This document shows, piece by piece, positions 7,591 to 59,915 of a DNA stretch of 64,000 nucleotides. The stretch is from the NCBI RefSeq assembly GCF_963921235.1, contig NC_086108.1, positions 77,502,001 to 77,566,000 on the forward strand, given 5' to 3'. The stretch's first letter is position 1. Every line of letters starts with the position of its first letter. The notes beneath the pieces are model-generated. The model was not told where the DNA came from, made no database searches, and worked only from the letters and a program-made list of their open reading frames with translations. This stretch comes from Mobula hypostoma. Taxonomy: Eukaryota. The position numbers and the translations under genes were made by a program.

Positions 7591-8464
7591 TTATTTTTAG
7601 ATATTCTGAAGTAGATTATTTGATATAAACTTAGGACATAGTACAGCAAATTACCAGGTCCTTTGCCCACCCATCATGATGTAGAATTAATCTATCTACT
7701 GCAGCTATATATGAACCAGGTGCCCTTCCAGGCACCTACCACTTATCCAGATTTATCCATATTTGGAAATCAAACATCCAAACCCAGATTTATCCAGAGT
7801 TACTGCCATTTTGGATAAATTTGAGGAAATATCACTCATTCATGAAGAAAATATAAAGATAAAATTTTAAATTGTGAAGAGCTGGAAACTCATTTGTGGT
7901 CTCAACATCAGCAAAACCAAAGACTTGATTATTGACTACAGGAGGAAGAAAACAAAGGTCCGTGAGCCGGTCCACATTAATGGACTGGAGGTAGAGTCAG
8001 TCCGTAATTTTAAATTCCTTGGCATTATCATATCAGAGGATCTGTCTGGGGACTAGCACACAAATGCCGCCACAAAGAATGCAGGACAGTACCTCCACTG
8101 TCTTCGAAGTTTGTGTAGATTTGGTATGTCATCTAAAAGTTTGACAAACTTCTATTGATGCACAAGAGTATCCCAACAGATCGCATCATGGCCTGGTGTG
8201 GAAACACCAATGTCCAAATACAGAAAAGCCTACAAAAAGTGGTGGACACAGCCCTGTTCATCAAAGGCAATGCACACCCCACCATTGAGCACATCTACAA
8301 GGAGCGCTGCCACAAGAAAGCAGCATCAATAGTCAAGGACCAGGTCCTGGTCCCACACCACCCTTCAACCATCAGGCTCCCGAACCAGCCTGGATAACTT
8401 CACTCACTTCAATTCTGAACTGATTTACAACCTAAACAGTCAGGGCCCCAAACAGTCCTTCCAG

Positions 8465-8791
8465 GTGAGGCAACACTTCACCTGTGAGTCGGCTGGGGTG
8501 ATATACTGCGTCCGGTGCTCCCGATGTGGCCTTTTCTATATTGGCGAGACCCGACGCAGACTGGGAGACCGCTTTGCTGAACATCTACGCTCTGTCCGCC
8601 AGAAAAAGCAGGATCTCCCAGTGGCCACACATTTTAATTCCACATCCCATTCCCATTCTGACATGTCTATCCACGGCCTCCTCTACTGTAAAGATGAAGC
8701 CACACTCAGGTTGGAGGAACAACACCTTATATTCCGTCTGGGTAGCCTCCAACCTGATGGCATGAACATCGACTTCTCTAACTTCCGCTAA
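8465..8791 (+). CDS. PLE GIY-YIG endonuclease domain (C-terminal fragment; the start is not native)
   Basis: VIYCVRCSRCGLFYIGETRRRLGDRFAEH ... HF ... GMN: GIY-YIG signature with the PLE CxxC/H/H residues. Confidence 0.85.
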   Translation: MRQHFTCESAGVIYCVRCSRCGLFYIGETRRRLGDRFAEHLRSVRQKKQDLPVATHFNSTSHSHSDMSIHGLLYCKDEATLRLEEQHLIFRLGSLQPDGMNIDFSNFR

Positions 8792-9081
8792 TGCCCCACC
8801 TCCCCCTCGTACCCCATCTGTTACTTATTTTTATACACACATTCTTTCTCTCCCTCTCCTTTTTCTCCCTCTGTCCCTCTGAATATACCCCTTGCCCATC
8901 CTCTAGGTCCCCCCCCCTGTCTTTCTTCCCGGACCTCCTGTCCCAAGATCCTCTCGTATCCCTTTTGTCTATCACCTGTCCAGCTCTTGGCTCCATCCCT
9001 CCCCCTCCTGTCTTCTCCTATCATTTTGGATCTCCCCCTCCCCCTCCAACTTTCAAATCCCTTACTCACTCTTCCTTCAGT

Positions 9082-9119
9082 TAGTCCTGACGAAGGGTCG
9101 TGGCCTGAAACGTCGACTG
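9082..9119 (+). ncRNA. Minimal type I hammerhead ribozyme (PLE-associated)
   Basis: TAGTC-CTGACGA-AGGGTCGTGGCCT-GAAAC-GTC-GACTG: conserved CUGANGA and GAAA boxes, GUC cleavage triplet, helix I UAGUC/GACUG. Confidence 0.75.
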
Positions 9120-10039
9120 CACCTCTTCCTACAGATGCTGCCTGGCCTTCTGCGTTCACCAGCAACTTTTATGTGTGTTGCTTACAACCTATGAACTCAC
9201 TTCCAAGGATTCTACAACTCATGTTTTCAGTATTACCCATAGGAAAATACATTTTCTTCTTTGCATTTTAACAGTTTGCCATCTTTATCATATTGGTTTT
9301 TTGTTAGTCTCTATGGTAGATTTTCATTATATCTGTTATATTTCTTCATTCTACTGCGAATATCTGCAAGAAAATGAACCTCAGGGTAGCATATGGTGAC
9401 GATAATGTACTTTGAACAGGCTCCTGAACCAGCGAGGGTAACTTCGCTCTGCTCAACAAGGAATTGATCATTGAGCACAACCAGTGGACTCACTTTCGAA
9501 GACTCTACAACTCATGTTTTCAGTATTATTTATTTATTTATTTGTTTGTTTGTTTGCATTTGTACAGCTTGTCCTCTTTTGCATATTGGTTGCTTGTCAG
9601 ATTTTATGTGTCGTACTTCATTGATTCGACTGTATTTCTGCTTTCTACTGTGAATGCCTGGAAGAAAATGAATCTCATGGTGACATTTATGATACTTCAA
9701 TGATAAATTTACTTTGAACTTTGAGGAGGTACTCCTACTTTTGATGTGGGAACATTTTCTTAAATATAGAGATTCTCTTAGAAAATTTCTCAGTTAGTAA
9801 CTTTTAAAATAATATTATAAAAATAATATAATACTTCAAAACATCCTGAAACACATTTGGCACATCTGATTTACTTCACTATAATTAAGCGATGGTTCAA
9901 AATGTTACCCATTACATTATTGCTTCCCTCTCTGAGAACCGAGATAATAAAATATATGGTGTTGACTGAGCTAACTTAAGAAGTAAATCTTAGATGAAAT
10001 ACCGTAAAAATTGAAATGAAACACTGACATATTTCGCAT

Positions 10040-11930
10040 TAGAACAGTACATCTCAGGACCAGCCCATTTGGCCCACCATATCTGCACTGATCATGTCGC
10101 CAAAATAAATTAATCACATCTGCCTGCACATGCTCCTCATCCCTCAATTCCCTGCCCGTTCATGTGTCTGTCAAAGTGCCTCTTAAACATTGTTTTGGAT
10201 CTGCTTCCATCTCCTCCCCTGCAGCACTTTCCATGTACATAACATTCTCTATTTTAAAACAAAACTCGTCTCACAAATTTCTATTAAACTTTCTTTTTCT
10301 TGCTTTAAATCCAAGTCCTTTAGTATTTGACATTTCCAATCTGGGAATAAGACATTGACAATCAATCTTATTTATGCCTCTCATAATCTCACATCCTTTG
10401 CAGATTTCACTTCAGCCTCTCCGCTCTAGAGAAAACCACTAAAGTTTTTCAACTTCTTTAATCCGGGCAGCATAATGGTTAATCTTTTCTGTTCACCCTA
10501 CCAAAGCTTCCATATCCTTCTTATAATATGGAGTCAAAACTGTATAGAATACTCCAAATGCCGCTAACCAAGGTTTTATATACTTGCAACATTCTTCCTG
10601 ATTCTTAATATCAATACCCTGACCAAGGATGCCTGGCATGCCCCATGCCTTCTTTATCAGTATATCCACTGGTGTTATCACTTTCAGCAGCACCCTACAA
10701 TCTGTCCATACGTCTACGGTCCACTTACTTAATATTTTCTTCTTGCATTTGACCTCCTAAGATGTATCATCTCACACTTGTCTAGATTAAACTCCATCTG
10801 TCACTCCTCCTTCCAGAATTTCCAGCTGAAATATATCCTGCTATACCCTTTGACAACCTTTCTCATTATCCAGAACGCCACCACTTTTTGTATCATCTGC
10901 TAACTTATTAATCAAATCTACATTTTTATTTGAATCATGAATATTGATTACGCAAGATGGAGGTCCCAGCACTGATCCTTCTCAAATGTTTTATTAAAGT
11001 CCATGCTGACAACTTCCAATGTTATACCCTCATCAATCATCTTCATCACTTCCTCAAATAACTCAATCAAATTTGAGAGACATGACCTCTGCCACAAAAA
11101 AAATGCTGACTTTCCCCAATAAGTCCATGCTTTTTCAAATGCAAATAAATCCTTCTTCTTCAATAATTTCCCTATCATTGATATAAGTCTTACCAAGCTA
11201 TTAGATTAGATTATGGGACACACAGTCCTCTTTTATTGTCATTTAGTAATGCATGAATTAAGAAATGATACAGTGCTCTTCCAGAATGATATCACAGAAA
11301 CACAAGACAAACCAAGACTGAAAAACTGACAAAAAAAACACAATTATAACATATAGTTACAACAGTGCAAAGCAATACCGTAATTTGATAAAGAACAGAC
11401 CGTGGGTACGGTAAAAAAAAGTCTCAAAGTCTCGAAAGTCCCATCACCTCATGCAGACGGTAGAAGGAAGAAAAACTCTCCCTGCCATGAGCTTCCAGCG
11501 CCGCAAACTTGCCGATGCAGCATCCTGGAAGCACCCGAATTCAGCTGACTCTTGAGTCCGTCCGAAAACTTTGAGCCTCCGAACAGCCCTCCGATACCGA
11601 GCACCATCTCTGCTGAGTGCTTCGACCCCAGCCGCAGCAACAAGCAATAGGCAAAGCCGAGGATTTGGGACCTTCCTCTCCAGAGATTCTCAATCGCACA
11701 GTAGCAGCGGCAGCGAACCGGGCATTTCAGAAGTTTCTCCAGATGTTCCTCTGTGCTTCTCACTTCTGTCCCCATCAAATCAGGATTGTGCATGGTACCC
11801 ACTTACAAATACGATATCATTTTGGAGCGGCTGCGTGCGCTGCGTCGTGCCGCCATCTTCTCCTCCTGGTTTGTCTCTGTTGTTCTTAAACAAAGGAATG
11901 CCTTTGGCCATTCTCCATTCCTGAGCATTG
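10040..11930 (-). mobile_element. Old CR1 LINE fragment interrupted at 11201-11866
   Basis: SCLSNLIELFEEV...VSMDFNKTFEK (10948-11196). CR1 sequence resumes at CCTGGTTTGTCTCTG after the insert. Confidence 0.75.
11201..11866 (-). mobile_element. ~650-bp non-autonomous retroposon, copy 1
   Basis: Homologous over its length to 22914-23546 and 31513-32203. 5' GGAGGAGAAGATGGCGG, 3' AATAAA plus (TAATC)n. Confidence 0.85.
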
Positions 11931-15622: not shown

Positions 15623-16226
15623 AGGTGAATAGCAGGTATCATTTCATTGGCACTTCACTCAACCCTGGAACACCTGGACAGCAAAGATGCATACTTTTCA
15701 TTGACAACAGCTTGACATTCAATACCATCGTCCCCTCAGAACTAATCGATAAGCTCCAAGACCGAGGCCACAATGCCTCCTTCTGAAACTGGATCCTCAA
15801 TTTCCTCACTTGCAGACCCCAGTCAGTTTCATTTGCTGCAAGATCTCCTCCAGAATCTCCATCAGCAGGGGTGCACTACAAGACTGTGTGCTTAGTCTCC
15901 TGCTCTAGACACTTTACACTTATGACTGTGTGGCTACTTATTAACACTAATGTCATATTTAAGTTTGCCGATGACACCACTGTTGTTGGCTGAATCAAAG
16001 ATGGTGATGAATCAGCACATAGGAGGGAGACTGAAAATCTGGCTGAGTGCTGCAACAATAACAACCTCTCATTCAATGTCAGCAAGGCCAAGGAGCTGAT
16101 TATTTACCAGGAGGAGGAAACTCGAGGTCCATGAGCCAGTCCTCATCAGGGGATCAGGAGCGGAGAGGGCCAGCAACTTTAAATTTCTCCTTGTTAGCAT
16201 TTCAGAGGACCTGTCCTGGGTCCAGC

Positions 16227-18065
16227 AAGGACATTAAGGACACCCTGAATGCTAAAAAGAGGGCGTTTAGAGATGGAAATAGGGAGGAGCTGAGGGCAAT
16301 GCAGAGGGACCTGAAAGCCAGGACCAGGGAGGCTAAAGACAGGTACAGGATAAAGCTTGAGTGGAAACTCCAGCAGAACAACATGAGAAAGGTCTGGAGT
16401 GGGATGAGGACCATCACTGGGTTCCAGCAAACTAGCAACAGAGGAGCTGAAGACAGTGTGGACAGGGCCAACGAACTTAACCTGTTCTTTAACAGATTTG
16501 ACATTGTGGCCCCTGCCCATCCCCCACATGAGCCATCTGTTGTCGGCCCCCAACCAACACATATTCCACTCTCCCCTCCTACCCCTCTTCACAGTCCCCC
16601 ACCCTGCTCTCATGACTATACCCCTTCCCCACATGAAACCACCATGGTGGGTTTCACAGTTGAACAGGTGAGAAGACAGCTGAAACGTCTCAACCCAAGC
16701 AAGGCTGCAGGACCGGATGGTGTCAGTACCAGGGTGCTCAAAGCCTGTGCCCCTCAGCTGTGTGGAGTACTTCACCATGTATTCAACCTGAGCCTGATGC
16801 TCCGGAGGGTTCCTGTACTGTGGAAGATGTCCTGCCTTGTCCCTGTGCCGAAGACGCCGCGCCCCGGCGGCCTGAATGACTACAGAACGGTGGCATTGAC
16901 CTCCCACATCATGAAGACCCTGGAGAGACTTGTTCTGGAGCTGCTCCGGCCTATGGTCAGGCCACACTTAGATTCCCTCCAGTTCGCCTACCAGCCCCGA
17001 ATAGGAGTTGAGGATGCCATCGTCTACCTGCTGAACCATGTCTACGCCCACCTGGACAAGCCAGCGAGCACTGTGAGGGTCATGTTTTTTGACTTCTCCA
17101 GTGCGTTCAACACCATTCGCCCTGCTCTGCTAGGGGAGAAGCTGAGAGCGATGCAGGTGGATGCTTCCCTGGTATCATGGATTCTTGATTACCTGACTGG
17201 CAGACCACAGTACGTGTGCTTGCAACACTGTGAGTCCGACAGAGTGATCAGCAGCACTGGGGCTCCACAGGGGACCATCTTGTCTCCCTTTCTCTTCACC
17301 ATTTACACCTCGGACTTCAACTACTGCACAGAGTCTTGTCATCTTCAGAAGTTTTCAGATGACTCTGCCATAGTTGGATGCATCAGCAAGGAAGATGAGG
17401 CTGAGTACAGGGCTACGGTAGGAAACTTTGTCACATGGTGTGAGCAGAATTATCTGCAGCTTAATGTGAAAAAGACTAAGGAGCTGGTGGTAGACCTGAG
17501 GAGAGCTAAGGTACCGGTGACCCCTGTTTCTATACAGGGGGTCAGTATGGCCATGGTGGAGGATTACAGATACCTGGGGATATGAATTGACAATAAACTG
17601 GACTGGTCAAAGAACACTGAGGCTGTCTACAAGAAGGATCAGAGCTGTCTTTATTTCCTGAGGAGACGGAGGTCCTTTAACATCTGCCAGACGATGCTGA
17701 GGATGTTCTACGAGTCTGTGGTGGCCAGTGCGATCATGTTTGCTGTTGTGTGCTGGGGCAGCAGGCTGAGGGTAGCAGACACCAACAGAATCAACAAACT
17801 CATTCGTAAGGCCAGTGATGTTGTGGGGATGGAACTGGACTCTCTCACAGTGGTGTCTGAAAAGAAGATGCTGACTAAGTTGCATGCCATCTTGGTCAAT
17901 GTTTCCCATCCACTACATAATGTACTGGGTGGGCACAGGAGTACATTCAGCCAGAGACTCATTCCTCCGAGATGCAACACAGAGCATCATAGGAAGTCAT
18001 TCCTGCCTGTGGCCATCAAACTTTACAACTCCTCCCTTGGAGGGTCAGACACCCTGCGCCAATAG
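16227..18065 (+). pseudogene. Rex1 reverse transcriptase frame with a single in-frame TGA at 17583-17585
   Basis: Track ORFs 16131-17585 and 17694-18065 are in the same frame. The intervening codons read IDNKLDWSKNTEAVYKK. Confidence 0.85.
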
Positions 18066-38185: not shown

Positions 38186-38869
38186 CTTAATGAAGAGAGC
38201 ATAAACGTGGTTACATGAACTCGACATAAAGTGCAACAGTCGGAATGTGACAAGCTGAGCGTGAGGCCTACAATTCTCACTAATCATATAAAGCGAATAG
38301 AAACAAATTTAATCGAAGAGGAAAAAGAACAAATGTCGAACAGCTAATTGTTAACAGAATCAGGTCAGAGAATTCTGTGTGAAAACTTCCCTGAGCAGAA
38401 GCATCGAACCAAAATCACAGATTTAAGTCAGGAATGAAAAAAGGAGCAAGATTAGTAGAGAATATAAATTAATAGGAAGCAGCAGCAAAAGTGGAGTCAC
38501 AGTAAAACCCAGGCTCCTGTAAATAAATTGTCTTTGGCCCAGGAGATTCCTATCCAGAACACACCGCATCCACAGAGCAAAGTTCAGAAATATGTAATGG
38601 AAACTTGTGCTGCAATAATCTTGGGTATGTCAGGGAGGTAAGATGAGAGATGTTAATTTTCAAGCACCAGTGTATCGCTGCTTAGCACAGACATATTCTC
38701 CAGCCATCGGAATATAATCACACAGTGTGCTTGTTGTCCAGCTTTGGTTAAGGTTTGGCTGATTTTTGCATTCCTTCCTTGGAGTGTAACTCAAAGACCA
38801 AATACACAGTATAGATGGTGGGTGGGTGGGGGGCAAAGACTATGACATTGTGTTAAACATCAGACCAGG

Positions 38870-39098
38870 AATATGTAGTGTTTGAATAATGGAAATGTGT
38901 TTTTGATTAAGTATTATTGTTCTTTTAAATAATACAATATTGATTATATGTGAAAATGAGCGAATTGCATATGTCATAACGTTACCACATAATATGTGTG
39001 CGCCTTGCTTAAAGTAAAACAGAAAGTTAGACTCACATTTCAAAATTCCGTCCTTTCCTTTTAATTAGATTAATGTTTTGGAATCGCAAAACATAACA
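38870..39098 (+). repeat. 5' LTR (left boundary approximate)
   Basis: Shares AAGTTAGACTCACATTT and TTTCCTTTTAATTAG..TAATGTTTTGGA with 42156-42392. Ends ...CATAACA. Confidence 0.8.
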
Positions 39099-40245
39099 GT
39101 GACGATGAGGTATTTTTAAAATGAACCCGAGATGATTACCTGCCTTTGGAAGCGCAGTGAGACATTTGAATTTAAAAAAAGCAATGCAGCACATGTTCTT
39201 CCAAAGGAAAGACACGATTGAATAAAAACAGAAGCGGAAAACCCAATTCATGGGTTCATAAACAGTGAGTACCGGGTGATAATAATCATAAAGGAAAGAG
39301 CAGAAATGGCTGGCTACATCAGGAAGATTAATGTGTTTGATTACACAACGGGTTGAAAAAGCAACTTGACTTTTTATCCTTTTCTTTTCCCTGTACAGTC
39401 CACTTAGTTTTTGTCTGCCTGACATACTCTTCCGTATGTCCTACCTTGTTGCATTTTCCGCAAGTTTCACCTTTAAACCTGCATTTTAAACCTGGATTTT
39501 GTATACTAAATGGATCGAGCATATTTTAAAGCAAATGGAATAGCCAATGAGAAACAAACAGAAGTTTTGCTGAGTGCATTGGATTTAAAGGCATACAGTT
39601 TGCTTAGAAATTTGATTGCTCCAACCAATTTGATGCTATCATAAAAGTAATGCAGGGACATTGAGAATGGAAACCTTCGTTGATTGCAGAACACTCTAGA
39701 TTTCATAAGCAGAATTAAAAGAAATTTGAGTTCATTTCATCACGTTTGGCTGAATTGAAAAGATTGCTTGAGTATTGTCAGTTTAGTGATTGGCTTAATG
39801 ACATACTGACAGATAATTTAGTTTGTCGAATCTTACAAGAAGGTATTCAGAAACAGCTCCTAATTAATTGAGTTGCGGTCAGGAATGAAAGTGAGCATGA
39901 ACAAAATTGTATTGTCTAGACAGAAACCTGCCTAGCCGAGCAAATTGTATTACCGTTGTGGCTGGATCTTGCATACACCAGACCAATGCAGGTTTAAAGG
40001 TGAAACTTATGGAAAATGCAACAAGGTAGAACATATATAAGAGTATGTCAGGCAGACAAAAACTATATGGACTGTACAGGGAAAAGAAAAAGATAAAAGT
40101 CAAGTTGCAGTTTCAAAAAGAGCACTAAACTAGCATGCTGTTGATGAAAAATCTGGTAATGATGCGATTAACGCAGTACTGAGTACCCTCGAGAGTTACA
40201 ATGTGAAAGCTAACAATAGACAAGCAATATGGCTTACGCCAGAAA

Positions 40246-40824
40246 TGAACAAGGAGGTTATGCTGCAACTGTACAGGGTACTGGTGAGGCCGCACCTGGA
40301 GTACTGCATGCAGTTCTGGTCCTCTTACTTGAGGAAAGATATACTGGCTTTGGAGGCAAGGCAAAGGAAGTTCATCAGATTGATTCCAGAGGTGAGGGGG
40401 TTAGACTATGAGGAGAGATTGAGTCACCTGGGACTGTACTCACTGGAATTCGGAAGAATAAGAGGAGATCTTGGAGAAACATATAAAATTATAAAAGGGA
40501 TGGATAAGATAGAGGCAGGAAAGTTGTTTCCATTGGTAGGTGAGACTAGAACTAGGGGACATAGCCTTAAGATTCAGGGGAGTAAATTTAGGATGGAGAA
40601 GAGGAGGAACTGCTTTCCTCAAAGAGTGGTGAGTCTGTGGAATTCTTTGGTCAATGAAGCAGTGGAGACTACCTCAGTAAATACATTTAAGACAAGGTCA
40701 GATAGATTTTTGCATAGTAGGGGAATTAATTCCATGGCCAGATCAGCCATGATCTTATTGAATGGTGGAGCAGGCTCGACGGGCCAGATGACCTACTCCT
40801 GCTCCTAGTTCTTATGTTCTTATG
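40246..40824 (+). mobile_element. CR1 3' fragment inserted in the Gypsy protease region
   Basis: LYRVLVRPHLEYCMQFW ORF and a (TTCTTATG)n tail. The Gypsy frame resumes at LDTG. Confidence 0.9.
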
Positions 40825-41169
40825 TAATTGAAATGAGATTGGACACTGGCTTGGCTTGTTCAGCCATTCCACAAAATGAGTTCCAATGGCATTTCAAGGA
40901 TGCTAAACTGAAGCCTGTAGATGTCCAACTAAGAGCTTATATTGGAGAAAATATAACCCTTGTGGGAATGGCATTTGTAATCGTGAAATACAACAACCAA
41001 CAAGGTACATTGGGCTTGTATGAGGTAAAAACAGCAGGACCAGCATTGTGGGGTTGTGAGTGGCTGAGATAACTTGACTGGAAATCCATCCACAGTTTGT
41101 ATGCCACATCCCCTGTAATAAAATCAACTGAAAACAAATTTAGGAAAGTACTCTATGATGCCAAAACTG

Positions 41170-41858
41170 TCTCCATGTTGTACACCATGAAACGTGACAC
41201 AACACAGGGCAATCAAGTGTTGATACCTTCTTCTGTGCTTCTGTTTAGAAAGTATATTGTACCAATGCAAGATCATGCTGCTCAGTGGAATTGTGAAAGT
41301 GACAAAAGCAGTTGTCTGACTACAATAGTTTTTAAAGGCAACATATTGGAGAAAGCTTCCGATATGTTAATCAAGCAGTTACTTCCAAAACATGGATTGG
41401 GTTTAAGCAGGAAGAGAGTTCAAGGAGCTTCAGAAAAGTTGTATGCATTTGGGTTTTGTGAGTATAAAGAACCAGAATCTACTCTGCATGCATTAAGGTT
41501 ATTGCATGAGCTTCAAGTGGGAGATGAAAAGCTGCCTTTAGAAGTAGATGCAAAAAATAAAGCCCAGCTGGATGAATAGATGGCCAAAAATAAATGAGTC
41601 AACAGAGGATTTGAGGAAAACAGAGGATTTGTCAGATGATGCTGTGGATGTAGAAGCTAAGAGGAGAGATCAGATTGTAAAGGGAGCAGTAATAAGAAGA
41701 TATTCCAGTGAACTAACTGCACCTTCCCAAGATCAAAATGCTCATCTTAGAAAGAAGAAAGGGAAGAAAAAGAAAGAGACCAAGAGCAGGATAAAGAGAT
41801 AAAGAAGCAAGACTGGGAGAGAAGCAAGGATCAAATTGATCCAGAGAGAAAAGCAAAG
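41170..41858 (+). pseudogene. RBM25: Processed RBM25 fragment (RRM, downstream helix, part of the RE/RD-rich region)
   Basis: VFKGNILEKASDMLIKQLL...KRVQGASEKLYAFGFCEYKEPESTLHALRLLHELQVG...VDAKNKAQLDE and KRRDQIVKGA..YSSELTAPSQ closely match vertebrate RBM25 as I recall it. No introns; has a stop and indels. Confidence 0.9.
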
Positions 41859-42155
41859 CAAAGGAGCAAAAACGTGTCCAGAGATGTCAGAACCACTTCC
41901 TGCAATCTCAGAGTCAACCCCTACAACCACCACGGAGGAGGCCCCAAAACTTGAGATTGTTTCAAGTGAACCCTCTTGTCAGGAGAGACATTACCCCACA
42001 AGAGCAACAAATGCTCCATAGCAATTAAATCTTCAGGTCTGAATGGGACAATTTATGGTGTGGATGTCTGTATAGTAGTCATATGATGTAGTCTACTGTG
42101 TATGTAGTTAAGGTGCATTCTATATTGAGTTGGAGTTATAGCTAAGCAGGGGGAG

Positions 42156-42392
42156 TGTCGTGTATTTAATATTCCAGTAGTATTTGAATAATGTTGCTGA
42201 TTAAACATTCTTGTTAATTTAAATATTTCATTATGGGTTGTATGTAAAAAGTAAGTGAATTGTATACATCATGACATTGCCATGTGAAATGTGTTTGCCT
42301 CGTTTGAAGTAAAATGCAAGTTAGACTCACATTTTGGATTCCTGTCTTTTCCTTTTAATTAGTTTAATGTTTTGGAGTTACAACGCATAAGA
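42156..42392 (+). repeat. 3' LTR
   Basis: Starts TG immediately after the polypurine tract. Diverged direct repeat of the 5' LTR. Confidence 0.85.
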
Positions 42393-43414
42393 GAATTGCT
42401 CCAAAAATAATGAGTTGCGAGCTTTCCAAAAAGTGCCAACAGGACAAATGCTCTAATCATTGTCTCAGTGAAACACAAAGAATGCATTGTAAACAGACAC
42501 CATCTTGTGATCCTAAACATGTGACAAATTACTTTCCTTAACAAGAACATCACTATTGTCAAAGGGTCAAAGGTTACAAATATTAATATCCTTTACCTCA
42601 AAGGACAGAAGTTCCTCTCTATTTTTTCAGTTGAAGCGTAATGTCTTTATAACCTCACAGGGCATTTCAAACAGATCTTAAGGAATGTTGGGCATTTTCC
42701 CTAATACATTGATTTTAAAATATTAATAGATATTTTAATCTGATTTAAATCCTTCAGTTAACCTCACACAACAGCAATAATAATATCAAACAGAATGCTG
42801 ATTTTTACATGCCTATGATTATTGTCTTTAATGTTTATTCCCCTCCCTTTCTATGTAGGAAATGCTGAATAGTTTGGGTCAGTGATTTTTCTTGATATTT
42901 TACGTCACTGAACATTTAAAATTGTACTACTGAGATGAAGTAATGATACTAAAAATAACAATCTTGGTTCAGAATGTTTGGAACTTAATCCTAATTCTAA
43001 CTCCATTCCATTTTTCTCTGTCTTACTTATTTTCCTTAATGTTATTTTTATGCTGCTGTTTTAAGTACAACAAACATTTTACTGTAATTTGCTTGTTGTC
43101 GTCAAACTTTGCCAACTTAATTCCCATTTTTGAATAGGAATGCATTGCTCTTGAAACTGACTGTAGTTCTTTCCAGTAAACGTACCTAGCAGACATTTCA
43201 GTTTTAAACTAATGGGTGACAAATATATTAAGTGAAATTATGCTGATTATTTGGTACCAAAATGAAATAATAAACACATAAAAGATCATTTCTTATCGTT
43301 TTTTAAAAGAATAACTTGACTGAAGATTAATCTTTTTTTTCTTTAAAGTGTGCGTGAGGGGATACATCAAAGATATTTGGAATTGTTATTATTTTTCTCA
43401 CTTAGTTTTAACAT

Positions 43415-49910: not shown

Positions 49911-52900
49911 TCAGAACCCCGCCCCAGCCTTCCCTCCATACCCCCTGACCCCTGTAGCCACAAGGGCCATATCTAACTCCCTCTTAAATATAGCCAATGA
50001 ACTGGCCTCAACAGTTTCCTGTGGTAGAGAATTCCACAGATTCACCACTCTCTGTGTGAAGAAGTTTTTCCTAATCTCGGTCCTAAATGGCTTCCCCTCT
50101 ATCCTCAAACTGTGACCCCTCGTTCTGGACTTCCCCAACATCGGGAACAATCTTCCTGCATCTAGCCTGTCCAATCCCTTCAGGATCTTATACTTTTCAA
50201 TCAGATCCCCCCTCAATCTTCTAAATTCCAACGAGTACAAGCCCAGTTCATCCAGTCTTTCTTCATATGAAAGTCCTGCCATCCCAGGAATCAATCTGGT
50301 GAACCTTCTTTGTACTCCCTCTATGGCAAAGATGTCTTTCCTCAGATTAGGGGACCAAAACTGCACACAATACTCCAGGTGTGGTCTCACCAAGGCCTTG
50401 TACAACTGCAGTAGTACCTCCCTGCTCCTGTACTCGAATCCTCTCGCTATAAATGCCAGCATACCATTCGCCTTTTTCACTGCCTGCTGTACCTGCATGC
50501 CCACTTTCAATGACTGGTGTATAATGACACCCAGGTCTCGTTGCACCTCCCCTTTTCCTAATCGGCCACCATTCAGATAATAATCTGTTTTCCTATTTTT
50601 GCCACCAAAGTGGATAACTTCACATTTATCCACATTAAATTGCATCTGCCATGAGTTTTCCCACTCACCCAACCTATCCAAGTCACTCTGCATCCTCTTA
50701 GCATCCTCCTCACTGCTAACACTGCCACCCAGCTTCGTGTCATCCGCAAACTTGGAGATGCCGCATTTAATTCCCTCATCCAAGTCATTAATATATATTG
50801 TAAACAACTGGGGTCCCAGCACTGAGCCTTGCGGTACCCCACTAGTCACCGCCTGCCATTCTGAAAAGATCCCGTTTATTCCCACTCTTTGCTTCCTGTC
50901 TGCTAACCAAATCTCCACCCACACCAATACCTTACCCCCAATACCGTGTGCTTTAAGTTTGCACACTAATCTCCTGTGTGGGACCTTGCCAAAAGCCTTT
51001 TGAAAATCCAAATATACCACATCCACTGGTTCTCCCCTATCCACTCTACTAGTTACATCCTCAAAAAATTCTATGAGATTCGTCAGACATGATTTTCCTT
51101 TCACAAATCCATGCTGACTTTGTCCGATCATTTCACCGCTTTCCAAATGTGCTGTTATCACATCCTTGATAACTGACTCCAGCAGTTTCCCCACCACCGA
51201 CGTTAGGCTAACCGGTCTATAATTCCCCGATTTCTCTCTCCCTCCTTTTTTAAAAAGTGGGGTTACATTAGCCACCCTCCAATCCTCAGGAACTAGTCCA
51301 GAATCTAATGAGTTTTGAAAAATTATCACTAATGCATCCACTATTTCTTGGGCTACTTCCTTAAGCACTCTAGGATGCAGACCATCTGGCCCTGGGGATT
51401 TATCTGCCTTTAATCCCTTCAATTTACCTAACACCACTTCCCTACTAACATGTATTTCACTCAGTTCCTCCATCTCACTGGACCCTCTGTCCCTTACTAT
51501 TTCTGGAAGATTATTTATGTCCTCCTTAGTGAAGACAGAACCAAAGTAATTATTCAATTTGTCTGCCATGTCCTTGGTCCCCATAATCAATTCACCTGTT
51601 TCTGTCTGCAGGGGATCTACATTTGTCTTTACCAGTCTTTTCGTTTTTACATATCTATAAAAGCTTTTACAGTCCGTTTTTGTGTTCCCCGCCAATTTTC
51701 TCTCATAATCTTTTTTCCCCTTCCTAATTAAGCCCTTTGTCCTCCTCTGCTGAACTCTGAATTTCTCCCAGTCCTCAGGTGAGCCACTTTCTCTGGCTAA
51801 TTTGTATGCTTCTTCTTTGGAATTGATACTATCCCTAATTTCTCTTGTCAGCCAAGGGTGCACTACCTTCCTTGATTTATTCTTTTGCCAAACTGGGATG
51901 AACAATTGTTGTAGTTCATCCATGCAACCTTTAAATGCTTGCCATTGCATATCCACCGTCAATCCTTTAAGTGTCATTTGCCAGTCTATCTTAGCTAATT
52001 CACGTCTCATACCTTCAAAGTTACCCCTCTTTAAGTTCAGAACCTTTGTTTCTGAATTAACTATGTCACTCTCCATCTTAATGAAGAATTCCACCATATT
52101 ATGGTCACTCTTACCCAAGGAGCCACTCACGACAAGATCGCTAATTAACCCTTCCTCATTGCTCAAAACCCAGTCCAGAATAGCCTGCTTTCTAGTCGGT
52201 TCCTCGACATGTTGGTTCAAAAAACCATCCCGCATACATTCCAAGAAATCCTCTTCCTCAGCACCTTTACCAATTTGGTTCACCCAGTCTACATGTAGAT
52301 TGAAGTCACCCATTATAACTGCTGTTCCTTTATTGCACACATTTCTAATTTCCTGTTTAATACCATCTCCGACCTCACTACTACTGTTAGGTGGCCTGTA
52401 CACAACTCCCACCAGCGTCTTCTGCCCCTTGGTGTTACGCAGCTCTACCCATATCGATTCCACATCTTCCCGGCTTATGTCCTTCCTTTCTATTGCGTTA
52501 ATCTCTTCTTTAACCAGCAACACCACCCCACCTCCCCTTCCTTCATGTCTATCCCTCCTGAATATTGAATATCCCTGAACGTTGAGCTCCCATCCCTGGT
52601 CACCCTGGAGCCATGTCTCTGTGATCCCAACTATATCATAATCATTAATAACAATCTGCACTTTCCATTCATCCACCTTATTACGAATGCTCCTTGCATT
52701 GACACATAAAGCCTTCAGGCGCTCTTTTACAACTCTCTTAGCCCTTATACAATTATGTTGAAAAGTGGCCCTTTTTAATGCTTGCCCTGGATTTGTCAGC
52801 CTGCCACTTTTACTTTTCTCCTTTGTACTTTTTGCTTCTACCCTCACTTTACACCCCTCTGTCTCTCTGCACTGGTTCCCATCCCCCTGTTGTGAACTAA

Positions 52901-52943
52901 CCTCCTCACGCCTAGCCTCTTTAATTTGATTCCCACCCCCCAA
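49911..52943 (-). CDS. CR1 ORF2: APE endonuclease plus reverse transcriptase, 1010 aa
   Basis: NARS, ITETWL, GDFN and SDHN (endonuclease); YLDFQKAF, GVPQGSVLGP and KFADD (RT). Uninterrupted. Confidence 0.95.
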   Translation of the reverse strand: MGGGNQIKEARREEVSSQQGDGNQCRETEGCKVRVEAKSTKEKSKSGRLTNPGQALKRATFQHNCIRAKRVVKERLKALCVNARSIRNKVDEWKVQIVINDYDIVGITETWLQGDQGWELNVQGYSIFRRDRHEGRGGGVVLLVKEEINAIERKDISREDVESIWVELRNTKGQKTLVGVVYRPPNSSSEVGDGIKQEIRNVCNKGTAVIMGDFNLHVDWVNQIGKGAEEEDFLECMRDGFLNQHVEEPTRKQAILDWVLSNEEGLISDLVVSGSLGKSDHNMVEFFIKMESDIVNSETKVLNLKRGNFEGMRRELAKIDWQMTLKGLTVDMQWQAFKGCMDELQQLFIPVWQKNKSRKVVHPWLTREIRDSINSKEEAYKLARESGSPEDWEKFRVQQRRTKGLIRKGKKDYERKLAGNTKTDCKSFYRYVKTKRLVKTNVDPLQTETGELIMGTKDMADKLNNYFGSVFTKEDINNLPEIVRDRGSSEMEELSEIHVSREVVLGKLKGLKADKSPGPDGLHPRVLKEVAQEIVDALVIIFQNSLDSGLVPEDWRVANVTPLFKKGGREKSGNYRPVSLTSVVGKLLESVIKDVITAHLESGEMIGQSQHGFVKGKSCLTNLIEFFEDVTSRVDRGEPVDVVYLDFQKAFGKVPHRRLVCKLKAHGIGGKVLVWVEIWLADRKQRVGINGIFSEWQAVTSGVPQGSVLGPQLFTIYINDLDEGIKCGISKFADDTKLGGSVSSEEDAKRMQSDLDRLGEWENSWQMQFNVDKCEVIHFGGKNRKTDYYLNGGRLGKGEVQRDLGVIIHQSLKVGMQVQQAVKKANGMLAFIARGFEYRSREVLLQLYKALVRPHLEYCVQFWSPNLRKDIFAIEGVQRRFTRLIPGMAGLSYEERLDELGLYSLEFRRLRGDLIEKYKILKGLDRLDAGRLFPMLGKSRTRGHSLRIEGKPFRTEIRKNFFTQRVVNLWNSLPQETVEASSLAIFKRELDMALVATGVRGYGGKAGAGF

Positions 52944-52948
52944 CCATT

Positions 52949-53881
52949 CTAGTTTAAAGTCACCTCAGTAGCCCCCGCTAATCTCCCTGTCAGGATATTG
53001 GTCCCCCTAGGATTCAAGTGTAACCCGTCCTTTTTGTACAGGTCACGCCTGCACCAAAAGAGGTCCCAATGATCCAAAAACTTGAATCCCTGCCCCCTGC
53101 TCCAATCCCTTAGCCACGCATTTATCCTCCACCTCATCGCATTCCTACTCTCACTGTCGCGTGGCACAGGCAGTAATCCCGAGATTACTACCTTTGCGGT
53201 CCTTTTTCTCAACTCCTTTCCTAGCTCCCTATATTCTCCTTTCAGGACCTCATCCCTTTTCCTACCTATGTCATTGGTACCTATATGTACCACGAGCTCT
53301 GGCTCCTCACCCTCCCACTTCAGGATATCTTGGACACGATCAGAAATATCCCGGACCCTGGCACCGGGGAGGCAAACTACCATCCGGGTCTCTGGACTGC
53401 GTCCACAGAATCGCCTATCTGACCCCCTTACTATCGAGTCCCCTATCACAACTGCCCTCCTCTTCCTTGCCCTACCCTTCTGAGCTACAGGGCCAGACTC
53501 TGTGCCGGAGGCACAGCCACTGTCGCTTCCCCCGGGTAAGCTGTCCCCTCCAACAGTACTCAAACAGGAGTACCTGTTGTTAAGGGGCACAGCCACCGGG
53601 GTACTCCCCATCACCTGACTTTTCCCCTTCCCCCTCCTAACCGTGACCCACTTGTCTGCCTCCCGTGGCCCCGGCGTGACCACCTGCCTTCCACTCCTCT
53701 CTATCACCTCCTCACTCTCCCTGACCAGACGAAGGTCATCGAGCTGCAGCTCCAGTTCCGTAACGCGGTCCCTTAGGAGCTGCATCTCGATGCACTTGGC
53801 GCAGATGTAGACGTCCGGGAGGCTTGGAGACTCCAGGGCCTCCCACATCCGGCACCGAGAACAGCAAACTGCCCTCTCACT
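52949..53881 (-). CDS. CR1 ORF1: zinc finger, coiled coil, SGNH esterase (native ATG apparently lost)
   Basis: CSRC...CAKC, a leucine heptad, and the SGNH blocks GDSIVRG, HIGTND and DGLHLN. Confidence 0.88.
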   Translation of the reverse strand, partial: SERAVCCSRCRMWEALESPSLPDVYICAKCIEMQLLRDRVTELELQLDDLRLVRESEEVIERSGRQVVTPGPREADKWVTVRRGKGKSQVMGSTPVAVPLNNRYSCLSTVGGDSLPGGSDSGCASGTESGPVAQKGRARKRRAVVIGDSIVRGSDRRFCGRSPETRMVVCLPGARVRDISDRVQDILKWEGEEPELVVHIGTNDIGRKRDEVLKGEYRELGKELRKRTAKVVISGLLPVPRDSESRNAMRWRINAWLRDWSRGQGFKFLDHWDLFWCRRDLYKKDGLHLNPRGTNILTGRLAGATEVTLN

Positions 53882-56800
53882 ATATAGGACATATAGAGAG
53901 GTAGTTACAACCAAGGTGCAGGGTACAGAAAACTGGATGAAGTCAGGAAGGGGAAAGGGGTTATACAGCCAGAGCAGAGTACCCCTGGGGCTACCCCTCT
54001 CAACAACAGGTATATCACTTTGCATATTGTTGCAGGGGTGGGGGTTGGGGTGACCTAGCAGAGGAAAGTCATTTGGATCATTGGGCTCTCTGCCAGGGAT
54101 TGTACAAAAGGGATGGTTTGCACCTGAACTGGAAGCTGACTAATATACTAGCAGGAAGGTTTATGAGTGCCTCATGGTAGGGTTTAGACCAGAGTTGCAG
54201 GGGGATGGGAACCAGAGTGCCAGAGCAGTTAGTGGAGAGTTGTAGAGGTGCATATTTTTTAAGACAAAGTCAGGAACCAAAATGTTGAACATGGTGTGAC
54301 TAATGTCCTGAACTGCATGTATTTTAATGCAAGATGTATCATAGGAAAGGTAGATGAGCTCAGGGCATGGACAACACCTGGAATTATGATATTATAGCTA
54401 TTACTAGTCAGGGAAAATGTCACAGCAGTAGTCAGTCAGGACAGGCTGGTGAGGCATTACAGGTGGAACTGAGAAATAAGAAAAGTACATCCATGTTAAT
54501 GGGGCTACATTGCAGACCAACTAACAGTCCGTGGAGTTTAGAGGAATAAATTTGCAGAGAGATCACAGACTGTTGCAAGAAACAGGAAGTTGTTACAGTA
54601 GGTGATTTCAACTTTTCTCATATTGACTAGGACTCACATACTGTAAAAAGGACTAGATTTGATAGAGTTTGTCAAATGTGTTCAAGAAAGTTTCCTTAAT
54701 AAATATGTAGAAGTCCCAATGAGAGACTGTGTGATACTTGATCTGCTATAGGGGAACGAGACAGGGCAGGTGATAAAAATTTGTGTAGGGGAACACTTTG
54801 CACTGAGCAATCACAATGCCATTAGTTTCCAAGTAGATATGCAAAAAGATAGGTACAGTCCACAGGTTGAGATTCTAAACTGGAGAAAGGCCAATTTTGA
54901 TGGTATCAGGAGAGATTTGGCAAGTGTGGATTGGGATAGGCTGGTTTCTGGCAAAGGTGCACTTGGTAAGCGAGAGGCCATCAAAAGTGAAATTTTGAGA
55001 GAACAATGCTTATATGTGTCTGTCAGAATAAAAGGTAAAGATAACAAGTTCAGGGAACCTTGGTTTTCAAGAGATATTGAGGCTCTGGTTAACAAAAAAA
55101 AAGGAGATGCATAGCAAATATAGGAAGGCTGGAACAAATAAGGTACCTATGGAGTGTAAGAAATGCAAGAAAACACTTAAGAATGAAATCAGGAGGAATT
55201 AAAGAAGGCAAGGGTTTTACCTGGCAGGCAAGGTGAAGGGGAATCCTAAGGGATTCTACAGATATGTTAATAGAGAAAGGATTGCAAGGGGCAAAACTGG
55301 TTGTCTGGAAGATCAGAATGCTAATCTATGCGTGGAGCCAAAAGAGATGGGGAAGATCTTAAATGAACTTTTTGCATCTGTATTTTCTCAGGAGATGTCA
55401 CAGAGTCTATAGACGTGAGGCAAAGCGGAATCAACTTCATGGACCCTGTACTGATTACAGTTTGCTGTCCTAAGGCAAGTTAGGGGGGCTAACCCCCCAG
55501 GGCCTGGCAAGGTGTTCCCATGCCTGTAGAAGGCAAGTGCAGAAATTGCTGGAGCCCTAGCAGAGATATTTAAATCATCCTTAGCGGTAAGTGAAGTACC
55601 AGATAACCGGAGGACAGCCAAAGTTGTTCCACTGTTCAAGAAAGGCTCTAAAAATAAACCAGAAAATTATAGGCCAGTGAGCCTGAAGCAGTAGTGGGAA
55701 CGTTATTAGCAGGTATTCTAAGGGACCAGATATATAAACATTTAAATAGCCATGGACTGTTAAGGATAGTCCATATAGCTTCATGCCTGGTAGGTCACAT
55801 CTTACCAATCTTATAGAGTTTTTCAAGGAAGTTACCAGGAAACTTGATGAAGGCAAGACAATGGATGGTCTCTACGTGGACTATGCTAAGGCTTTTTGAC
55901 AAAGTCCTGTTTGGGAGGTTGGTTAGGAAGATCCATTCGCTTGGCAATCAAGTTGAGGTAGTAAATTAGATTAGACATTAGCCTTGTGGGAGAAGCCACA
56001 GAGTGGTAATAGATGGTTGCCTCTTTGACTGGAGGCCTGTGACTAGTGGAGTCCTGCAGGTATCAGTGCTGGGTCCATTGTTGTTTGTCATCCATATCAA
56101 TGATCTGGACGACAATGTGGTTAACTTGATCAGCAAATTTTCAGATGACACCAGGACTGGGGGTACAGTGGACAATCAGGAAGACTATCATGGATTGCAG
56201 TGGGATCTAGACCAGATGGAAAAATAGGCTGAATGGCCAATGGAATTTAACACAGACTAGTGTGATGAGTTGCACTTTGGTAGGACTATGCTTAGGAGTT
56301 TTTACACAGTGAATGGTAGGGCACTGAGGAGTGTAATAGAACAAAGGGATCTGGGATTAGAGGTCCATGATTCATTGAAAGTGGCATCACAGGTAGATGG
56401 GGTCTTAAAGAAAGCTTTCAGTACATTGGCCTTCATAAATCAAAGTTTTGAGTACCAGAGATGAGATGTTATGTTGAAGTTGTATAAGGCATTGGTGAGG
56501 CCTAATTTGGAGTATTGTGTCCAGTTTTGGTCGCCTACCTACAGAAAGATGTAAATAAGTTTGAAAGAGTACGGTGAAAATTTACGAGGCTGTTGTTGGG
56601 TCTGGAAGACGTGAGTTATAAAGAAAGATTAAATCGGTTAGGACTTTATTCCTTGGAATGTAGAAATATGAGAGATTTGATAAATGTATACAAAATTATG
56701 AGAGTAAAATTATCATGTTTAAGGAGAACATGAGGGGAAACTTTTTCACTCAGAGTGTCGTAAGAGTGTGGAATGAGTTTCCAGCACAAGTATTGTATGC

Positions 56801-57529: not shown

Positions 57530-59915
57530 TGATGGAAAGACCTCAGTCAGTCCTAGATGGCAGCAGCATCTCAAGCTTCATCGCACTGAGCACTGGTGCC
57601 CTGAAAGGTTGTGTGCTCAGCCTGCTGGTGTTCACACTGCTGGCTCACAAATGCACTGCCAGATTACGCTCAAACTGTATCATTAAGTTCACTGATGATA
57701 CGACAGTGGTTGGCCTCATCAACAACAATGATGTATCGGCATACAGACAGGAGGTAGAGAGGCTTGTCAAATAGTATGAGAACGACGAAGGTTCATTTTA
57801 TTATCAAAGTATATATGCTGAGTACATTTCTGAGATTTGACTTCTCCGGATTGCCATAGAAAAATAAAACCATATAAGACGACATTAGTCTCAGTGTGGA
57901 CAAGACAAAAGAGGTTATTGTAGACTTCAGGAAGACACATGTCCACCACTTTCCATTGCACATCAATGGCTTTGCCATGGAGAGAGGGAAGAGCATGAAG
58001 TTCCTTGATGTGCACATCACAGATGAACTAACTTGGACTCACAACATCTGCTCACTAGTCAAAAAGGCACAGCTGCGTCCATACTTTCTGAGGAGAATGA
58101 GGCATGCAAGGCTCCCCGCCCCCAGTCTGACAGCTTTCTACAGGAACACCACCGGAAGTGTCCGGTCTGGCTGCATCATTGTGTGGTCCCGACGGCGCAA
58201 GGCATCAGACCACAATATTCTACAGAGGTCCGTAAAAACTGTCGAGAGGAACATCAGGGTCTCCCTCTCCCCTATTTGTGACCTTTACTGGGAGCATTGC
58301 AGATGAAGGGCCCAAAGCTTTGCTGAGGATCCCTACCACCCATTCAATAATTTTGAACCACTACCACCAGGAAAGAGGTACAGTAGCATCCTTCATCAGG
58401 GACCTTCACCACCCAGATCATGCTCTCTTCTCACTGCTGCCATCAAGAAGAACGTAGAAGAGCCTCAGGACTCACACCACTAAGTTCAGGAACAGTTATT
58501 ACTCCTCAGCCATCAGGCTTTTGAACCAAAGGAAATAACTTCACTTTTCCTGTTACTGAAATGCTCCAACAACCTATGGACTCACTTTCAAGGACTCTTC
58601 TTCTCATGTTCTTAATACTTATTGTTTATTATTATTATTACTATTATTATTATTGGCTCAATGGAAGAAGGCAAAGAATGATAGTGGAGGATTGTTTCTC
58701 TGAGTGGAGGCCTGTGACTAGTGGTGTGCCACAGGGATCAGTGCTGAGTCCATTGTTATTTGTCATCTATATCAATGATCTGGATGATAATGTGGTAAAT
58801 TGGATCAGCAAATTTGCTGATGATACAAAGATTGGAGGCGTAGTGGACAGTGAGGAAGGTTTTCAAAGTTTGCAGAGGGATTTGGACCAGCTAGAAAAAT
58901 GGGCTGAAAATGGCAGATGGAGTTTAATACAGACAAGTGTGAGGTATTGCACTTTGGAAGGACAAACCAAGGTAGAACATACAGGGTAAATGGTAAGACA
59001 CTGAGGAGTGCAGTAAAACAGAGGGATCTGGGAATACAGATACAAAATTCCCTAAAAGTGGCGTCACAGGTAGATAGGGTCATAAAGAGAGCTTTTGATA
59101 CATTGGCCTTTATTAATCAAAGTATTGAGTATAAGAGCTGGAATGTTATGATGAGGTTGTATAAGGCATTGGTGAGGCCGAATCTGGAGTATTGTGTTCA
59201 GTTTTGGTCACCAAATTACAGGAAGGATATTAATAAGATTGAAAGAGTGCAGAGAAAGTTTACAAGGATGTTGCCGGGACTTGAGAAACTCAGTTACAGA
59301 GAAAGGTTGAATAGGTTAGGACTTTATTCCCTGGAGCGTAGAAGAATGAGGGGAGATTTGATAGAGGTATATAAAATTATGATGGATATAGATAGAGTGA
59401 ATGCAAGCAGGCTTTTTCCACTGAGGCAAGGGGAGAAAAAAACCAGAGGACATGGGTTAAGGGTGAAGGGGGAAAAGTTTAAAGGGAACACTAGTGGGGG
59501 CTTCTTCACACAGAGAGTGGTGGGAGTGTGGAATGAGCTGCCAGACGAGGTTGTAATTGTGGGTTCTTTTTTAACATTTAAGAATAAGTTGGACAGATAC
59601 ATGGATGGGAAGCGTATGGAGAGATATGGTCCATGTGCAGGTCAGTGGGACTAGGCAGAAACTGGTTCCGCACAGCCAAGAAGGGCCAAAAGGCCGTTTC
59701 TGTGCTGTAGTTTTTCTATGGTTTCTATTATTATTATTAATTTATTTCTGTACTTGCACAATTTGTTGCTTTTTGCATATTGGTTGTATTCCCATTTTCA
59801 TTGATTCTATTACGATTATTGGATTTATTGAGTATGCCCACAGGAAAATGAATTTCAGGGTTGAATATGGTGACATGGATATACCTTGAGAGTAAATTTT
59901 CTTTGAACTTTGAAC
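57530..59915 (+). mobile_element. Degraded Rex1-like LINE fragments, 3' UTR split by CR1
   Basis: KFTDDTTVVGLI, DKTKEVIVDFRK and a TTTGAACTTTGAAC tail. Confidence 0.75.
58655..59727 (+). mobile_element. 5'-truncated CR1 (RT C-terminal half, one frameshift) inserted in a (TAT)n tract
   Basis: GVPQGSVLSP and KFADD, plus a 245-aa ORF at 58917-59654. CTATTATTATTATT occurs at 58641-58654 and 59725-59738. Confidence 0.9.

Follow-up and report, generated by a model that had tools for sequence, protein, structure and literature searches.

Positions 38874-42392 of the window, i.e. of the stretch of 64,000 nucleotides of Mobula hypostoma DNA analysed here, are confirmed as a Gypsy LTR element in which spliced sequence of RBM25, a conserved host splicing-factor gene, replaces reverse transcriptase (RT), RNase H and integrase. 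A sequence-only reading of the same DNA had proposed an element with the order LTR, primer binding site (PBS), gag, protease, polypurine tract (PPT) and LTR, and every part that it listed was found in the window. The features are:

38869..38873, no strand: left copy of the target site duplication (TSD); four of five letters identical to 42393-42397, TSD length taken from the family
38874..39098, plus strand: 5' LTR, TG...CA, with a 20-nt deletion close to its start
39099..39110, plus strand: PBS, pairing with the 3' end of tRNA-Ser(GCT) in ~9 of 11 letters
39306..40250, plus strand: decayed gag with zinc-knuckle region, start codon set by eye
39352..39487, minus strand: inverted gag self-copy of 136 nt, source at ~39985-40115, absent from the sisters viewed
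40250..40825, plus strand: 5'-truncated LINE (CR1-like) insertion between gag and protease
40826..41158, plus strand: protease region with DTG motif, in the RBM25 frame, one stop
41159..41165, plus strand: 5' switch point, 7-nt microhomology, in frame, one mismatch in the window copy
41159..41872, plus strand: captured spliced RBM25 cDNA, 714 nt, host CDS nt 147-751 and 1093-1218
41860..41874, plus strand: 3' switch point, 9-nt microhomology of the family, decayed in the window copy, out of frame with pol
41873..42023, plus strand: C-terminal tail of pol past the integrase core, last ~50 codons
42144..42155, plus strand: PPT, directly before the 3' LTR
42156..42392, plus strand: 3' LTR
42393..42397, no strand: right TSD copy, partner of 38869-38873

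Results

The window copy is dead, as had been stated: gag is disrupted by stops and frameshifts as well as by a ~66-nt deletion near position 39866 and the inverted self-copy, a LINE is inserted, and the two LTRs differ by 22% over 216 aligned sites. The insertion at 40250-40825, which had been called CR1, proved to be a 5'-truncated LINE; we keep the name CR1 as an assumption. A tRNA-Ser(GCT) complementary to the PBS occurs in the same genome, and sister copies gave a weak zf-CCHC match (L176; E 0.0014, under the cut-off) and weak aspartyl-protease matches (L004). The source of the inverted 136-nt copy lies ~500 nt downstream of it; the copy is ~92% identical to this source and ~80% identical to the sisters, and likely arose by templated repair after the element had inserted. 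A stop-free frame of 224 codons (40134-40808) runs from the end of gag into the tail of the inserted LINE and is probably fortuitous.

The captured piece had been recognised correctly as RBM25, while its length, estimated at ~690 bp, turned out to be 714 nt (41159-41872). Its first 10 nt close one exon and are followed by a 48-nt in-frame exon; the piece includes the RRM, keeps six exon junctions and lacks host nt 752-1092, with ~82-86% identity to the host in each of its blocks. The open reading frame at 41073-41579 (stop to stop) matches RBM25 with E 8.9e-36 and 64% identity, and Pfam RRM_1 with E 0.0027, which is under the curated cut-off; a PDB search returned generic RRMs only. Protease and RBM25 share one frame with a single stop between them, in agreement with the proposed fusion to the preceding Gypsy codons. 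What had been called an integrase C-terminal tail is indeed the tail of pol, yet it comprises only the last ~50 codons and is entered out of frame.

The intron-bearing parent gene maps to G000:C1 (minus strand, ~99.79-99.84 Mb) and was located with the C-terminus of RBM25; a Pfam PWI search gave three matches, none of them RBM25. All 11 donor sites of the mapped exons are GT, and AG acceptors precede all 10 internal exons. The family's captured segment corresponds to host CDS nt 147-1218, i.e. ~1.07 kb of mRNA with eight exon junctions drawn from ~29 kb of the gene, and is nearly full in copies L013, L053 and L054. Its first 10 nt are the end of one exon and its last 28 nt the beginning of a later one; it stops mid-CDS, about half of the coding sequence short of the stop codon. 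The 48-nt in-frame exon (G000:C1:99832586-99832633, L040) occurs in a shark isoform as well as in the captured mRNA, and is missing from the bony-fish and frog proteins viewed; a shark RBM25 isoform was also the top protein match of a sister frame. Host and most copies differ in 27 of 594 columns, 22 of them synonymously. At one non-synonymous difference, read by eye, the copies agree with the shark protein, which suggests that the host sequence changed once the capture had taken place. An earlier form of the host mRNA, with the 48-nt exon, survives in the copies. Two LTR-only matches of the family (L045, L047) lie upstream of the parent gene, at G000:C1 ~99.877 and ~99.906 Mb.

Both borders of the RBM25 piece coincide with short stretches common to host and element. 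At the 5' junction, pol-bearing sisters and host mRNA have 7 nt in common in the same frame; at the 3' junction, pol and host mRNA have 9 nt in common, and the pol tail that follows is not in the frame of RBM25. By chance, 7 nt were reached in 0.064% and 9 nt in 0.005% of 200,000 random junctions. Inspection of the RBM25 borders found neither poly(A) nor TSD, as had been claimed; the entire element is flanked by a 5-bp TSD with one mismatch. At the 5' point where the chimera enters RBM25, pol-type sisters go on into RT, and their integrase side reaches the chimera's 3' point; the pol core said to be missing exactly where RBM25 sits, i.e. RT, RNase H and integrase core, is carried there by the sisters. 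From the protease, 13 of 29 picked loci lead into RBM25 and 15 into pol, with one cut by an insertion; RBM25 was likewise present in 21 of 29 loci picked by the tail. Of 68 loci examined, two of them seen twice, 30 have both anchors, and none of these 30 shows the same deletion without RBM25. The replacement of pol by RBM25, the microhomologies and the lack of poly(A) and TSD at its edges together argue for gene capture rather than a LINE-made retrocopy, in line with the earlier proposal.

The chimeric junction is not confined to a single locus. A 24-letter pattern of the 5' junction, searched with up to 2 mismatches, occurred at 782 places and the pol-type pattern at 2,013, with no matches of the reversed control patterns; the chimera makes up ~28% of the junction-bearing family matches (782/2,795). 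These 782 matches, the differing flanks and the TSDs of individual copies bear out the suggestion that the element spread as a non-autonomous family. Among copies chosen independently of the pattern, it recovered 13 of 46, and among those chosen by means of the window stretch 14 of 30; from these rates we estimate 1,700-2,800 chimeric copies. A DNA search yielded 4,387 candidates, with the 5' junction spanned in all 40 that were scored, and a search with one host exon alone yielded 2,365. Both outer ends were present in 13 of 60 extended copies; six of these 13 have a TSD matching in at least 4 of 5 letters, a level reached by 1.9% of mismatched control pairs, and seven match in 3 of 5 letters or fewer, which counts against our best reading. 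Insert lengths, available for 42 of the 60 copies, form classes from ~580 to 1,020 nt in all three frame classes and, two copies with later insertions excepted, are due to recurrent deletions in the RE repeats. We read a common deletion of host nt 737-855 as an RT slip and not as splicing, since no donor site lies at its start, although its end, judged by eye, is an exon boundary.

LTR, gag and protease are common to the chimera and its pol-type sisters; within gag-protease, just 8 of 1,062 columns tell the two apart. The sisters hold pieces of RT, RNase H and integrase: L175 has the protease region, RNase H and the integrase zinc finger in order, while RT was found in L178 and the integrase core in L179. 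The domain order PR-RT-RH-IN (pieced together from sisters), the CCHC gag, the PBS and the PPT are those of a Ty3/Gypsy element. Short LTRs, a tRNA-Ser PBS, one gag-pol frame, a 5-bp TSD and, in the sisters, the order protease, RT, RNase H and integrase are further likenesses to this group, from which the chimera departs in lacking RT, RNase H and the integrase core. The element may belong to a Mag-like clade. None of ten extended pol-type sisters was an intact helper, and the family was absent from the best 30 integrase-zinc-finger loci. Five pol-type sisters (L118, L130, L134, L140, L151) carry other large pol deletions, with anchors 854-1,356 nt apart versus 2,127 nt or more in longer ones, and indicate that deletion derivatives spread without RBM25.

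Recombinant structures were also observed. Copy L173 (6033-7105) passes from pol to RBM25 at a shared stretch of 9 nt and L147 (981-1943) from RBM25 back to the integrase end; together with L167 and L122 they are mosaics or alternative 3' junctions between RBM25-type and pol-type copies. Such mosaics would be expected if both RNAs were packaged together. None of the sequencing runs listed with family sequence is recorded as RNA. Run X22, the RNA nature of which is guessed, has a contig that spans the 3' junction of a family copy, which cannot show transcription.

Regarding the age of the family, the two LTRs could be paired in 24 of 60 copies, and the 19 pairs with at least 120 sites gave K2P distances of 0.15-0.32 (mean 0.22). 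For sequence comparison, 86 of 117 loci were used (30 were too short or without RBM25, one was a duplicate); they differ from the host by 13.2% on average, the closest pair is 10.5% apart, and no young copy is among the 86. In three other organisms (B, C and E), contigs bridge the end of the 3' LTR of the window copy and the unique sequence that flanks it, and show 20, 47 and 63 differences over ~840-870 nt, respectively; in B and C the bridge includes only 32 letters within the LTR. In addition, 8,800-11,100 contigs align to the element in each of the three runs. Shared bridge and contigs indicate that both the insertion and the family predate the splits from these organisms. We also considered a pedigree-based shark mutation rate of 7e-10 per generation, as given in PMC10587355; with this rate, 0.11 substitutions per site would need ~1.6e8 generations, and we rejected the dating as the rate is not transferable.

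Does the captured part bear traces of selection? Omega of the RBM25 part was 1.05 (0.95-1.15; 86 copies) and 1.03-1.05 across tests, with frame controls at 1.08 and 0.96, figures that carry low power for earlier selection, since most variation arose after insertion, and little power for selection during the active phase, given a near star-like history with its closest pair at 10.5%. Four of five variants common to at least 20% of copies are non-synonymous, and indels in multiples of three number 41 of 240 in the RBM25 part versus 18 of 149 in a non-coding control. A role for the captured RRM is not supported, omega being ~1. For gag-protease, omega was 0.84 (0.75-0.94) in RBM25-bearing copies, with off-frame values of 1.08 and 1.13, and 0.91 (0.78-1.02) in pol-type copies, which shows weak constraint on this region. 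In an alignment of 68 of 81 upstream regions, 444 codon columns cover gag up to the junction; in none of them do stops exceed 40% of copies, compared with 45 and 37 columns in the other frames; the natural copies are thus consistent with the ancestral Gag-protease-RRM frame that had been proposed.

Stop codons gave a less uniform picture. In-frame stops in the RBM25 part were below expectation (0.74; 0.61-0.89), which counts against a passenger role; a second test gave 0.72 with off-frame controls of 0.90 and 0.93, and a matched test gave 0.81 (0.65-1.01). By pick set, the ratio was 0.67 and 0.78 in RBM25-picked copies and 1.18 (0.89-1.54) in 28 Gypsy-picked copies. Of 5,555 protein-match candidates, the best 150 include no conspicuous conserved retrogene: top identity was 80% over long matches, 13 were stop-free within the match, and the longest such frame had 311 aa. 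An intact frame with omega below 1, as required of a functional retrogene, was not found, omega being 1.05. Among proteins of 124-396 aa searched in other species, no annotated protease-RBM25 fusion was present, the best coverage being 64%.

Discussion

Taken together, we consider it quite probable that the family originated by capture through two RT template switches, was copied in trans by pol-bearing relatives and carries RBM25 as a passenger, the window holding a dead copy. A host mRNA would have been packaged in a virus-like particle, where RT would have left the element RNA just after protease, copied ~1.07 kb of host mRNA and come back near the end of pol. The product would have retained LTRs, PBS, PPT and gag-protease, such that helper enzymes could copy it. 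Since no intact helper copy was found, mobilisation in trans is what we infer. Later slips in the purine-rich RE repeats may have led to the shorter subfamilies, to which the window copy would belong. The RBM25 piece is most likely a passenger, and the family probably became extinct long ago. Our best reading is a non-autonomous family with a passenger cDNA that decays neutrally.

But what if the stolen piece of a splicing factor was useful to the retrotransposon, either within a Gag-protease-RRM fusion that aided replication or as a shield against small RNAs? We regard such a benefit as rather improbable overall. In its protein form, which appears unlikely, a Gag-protease-RRM protein would have been made, and the RRM or the open frame would have aided RNA packaging, export or stability during replication. 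The in-frame 5' junction, the 444 columns free of common stops compared with 45 and 37 off-frame, the gag-protease omega of 0.84, the depletion of RBM25 stops in two of three pick sets and the common deletions, which take RE repeats and spare the RRM, all speak for it. However, an in-frame junction has a chance of one in three, amino-acid omega lies at 1.03-1.05, insert lengths occupy all three frame classes, the best 150 protein matches contain no conserved outlier, and the RRM is partly or wholly lost in L117, L122, L131, L147, L167 and L173.

As a shield, RBM25 RNA would blunt the host response, because small-RNA silencing of the element would also hit host RBM25 mRNA; the idea exists for maize (bioRxiv 10.1101/777037). 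It could account for the ~28% share of the chimera among junction-bearing matches, and the 22 of 27 synonymous host-copy differences would fit an escape of the host. Yet synonymous drift is usual in any conserved host gene, LTR, gag and protease are common to the pol-type family and would be targeted anyway, and pol-deleted sisters without RBM25 spread too, so that we judge this possibility to be very unlikely. Least plausible, to the point of being hardly credible, is an RBM25 retrocopy that a LINE placed in a Gypsy copy, with pol and the insertion marks erased by deletions before the spread. LINEs are abundant here and the route is described for bat Helitrons (PMC4224331), but the RBM25 piece ends mid-CDS, its edges lack poly(A) and TSD, and both lie on microhomologies with pol.

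The mechanism behind our preferred reading, LTR-mediated capture followed by non-autonomous spread, is known; its scale here is unusual. As described by Tan et al. 2016 (PMC5131818), two template switches inside a virus-like particle explain such junctions. Like the present family, the LTR-mediated retrocopies of that study have a partial mRNA in place of part of an internal ORF, both LTRs, no poly(A) and further non-autonomous retroposition, and they show microsimilarity at both switch points (median 6 bp, compared with 7 and 9 nt here). Secondary copies reported there are few, with two fly retrocopies at more than one site and nine retrocopies amounting to 18 sites, in contrast to the estimated 1,700-2,800 copies, the deletion subfamilies and the mosaics with the helper type in the RBM25 family; its species included no cartilaginous fish. 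Maize Bs1, as summarised in PMC5131818, is similarly an LTR element with captured exonic host sequence and switch points common to all copies, but it has 1-5 copies and three donor genes and reportedly may be a functional gene, unlike the RBM25 family with one donor, hundreds-fold more copies and a captured part without protein constraint. Bat Helitrons (Thomas et al. 2014, PMC4224331) resemble it as a vertebrate case of captured host sequence at high copy number (12,382 copies of sequence from 54 genes and 16 non-genic regions) and differ as DNA transposons with another capture route; their mRNA-derived cases are described as LINE-1 insertions with poly(A) and TSD, 118 copies in all.

In the literature searched, we found no comparable copy number for a vertebrate LTR capture and no description of the RBM25 family, which Repbase, Dfam or supplements may hold; RBM25 does not appear in the main text of two ray genome papers or of PMC3597677. 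The family provides an unusually clean and large record of vertebrate LTR gene capture, with switch points, donor, helpers and recombinants in one genome. Roughly two thousand RBM25 pseudo-fragments can confuse annotation of the RBM25 gene and RNA-seq mapping, and shared insertions are usable as lineage markers. If the captured piece did prove useful, the family would count among the rare examples in animals of a transposon that benefits from part of a host gene and, likewise if true, would be a retrotransposon counterpart of a transducing retrovirus, with thousands of germline copies.

Other elements are present in the window as well. A young-looking LINE on the minus strand (49911-54139) has an ORF1 of 396 aa with a GDSL esterase and an endonuclease-RT frame of 1,017 aa. 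A GIY-YIG frame and further RT-bearing LINE remnants were noted at 8333-8791, 16062-18065 and 57878-59654, the GIY-YIG frame being likely a Penelope-like remnant.
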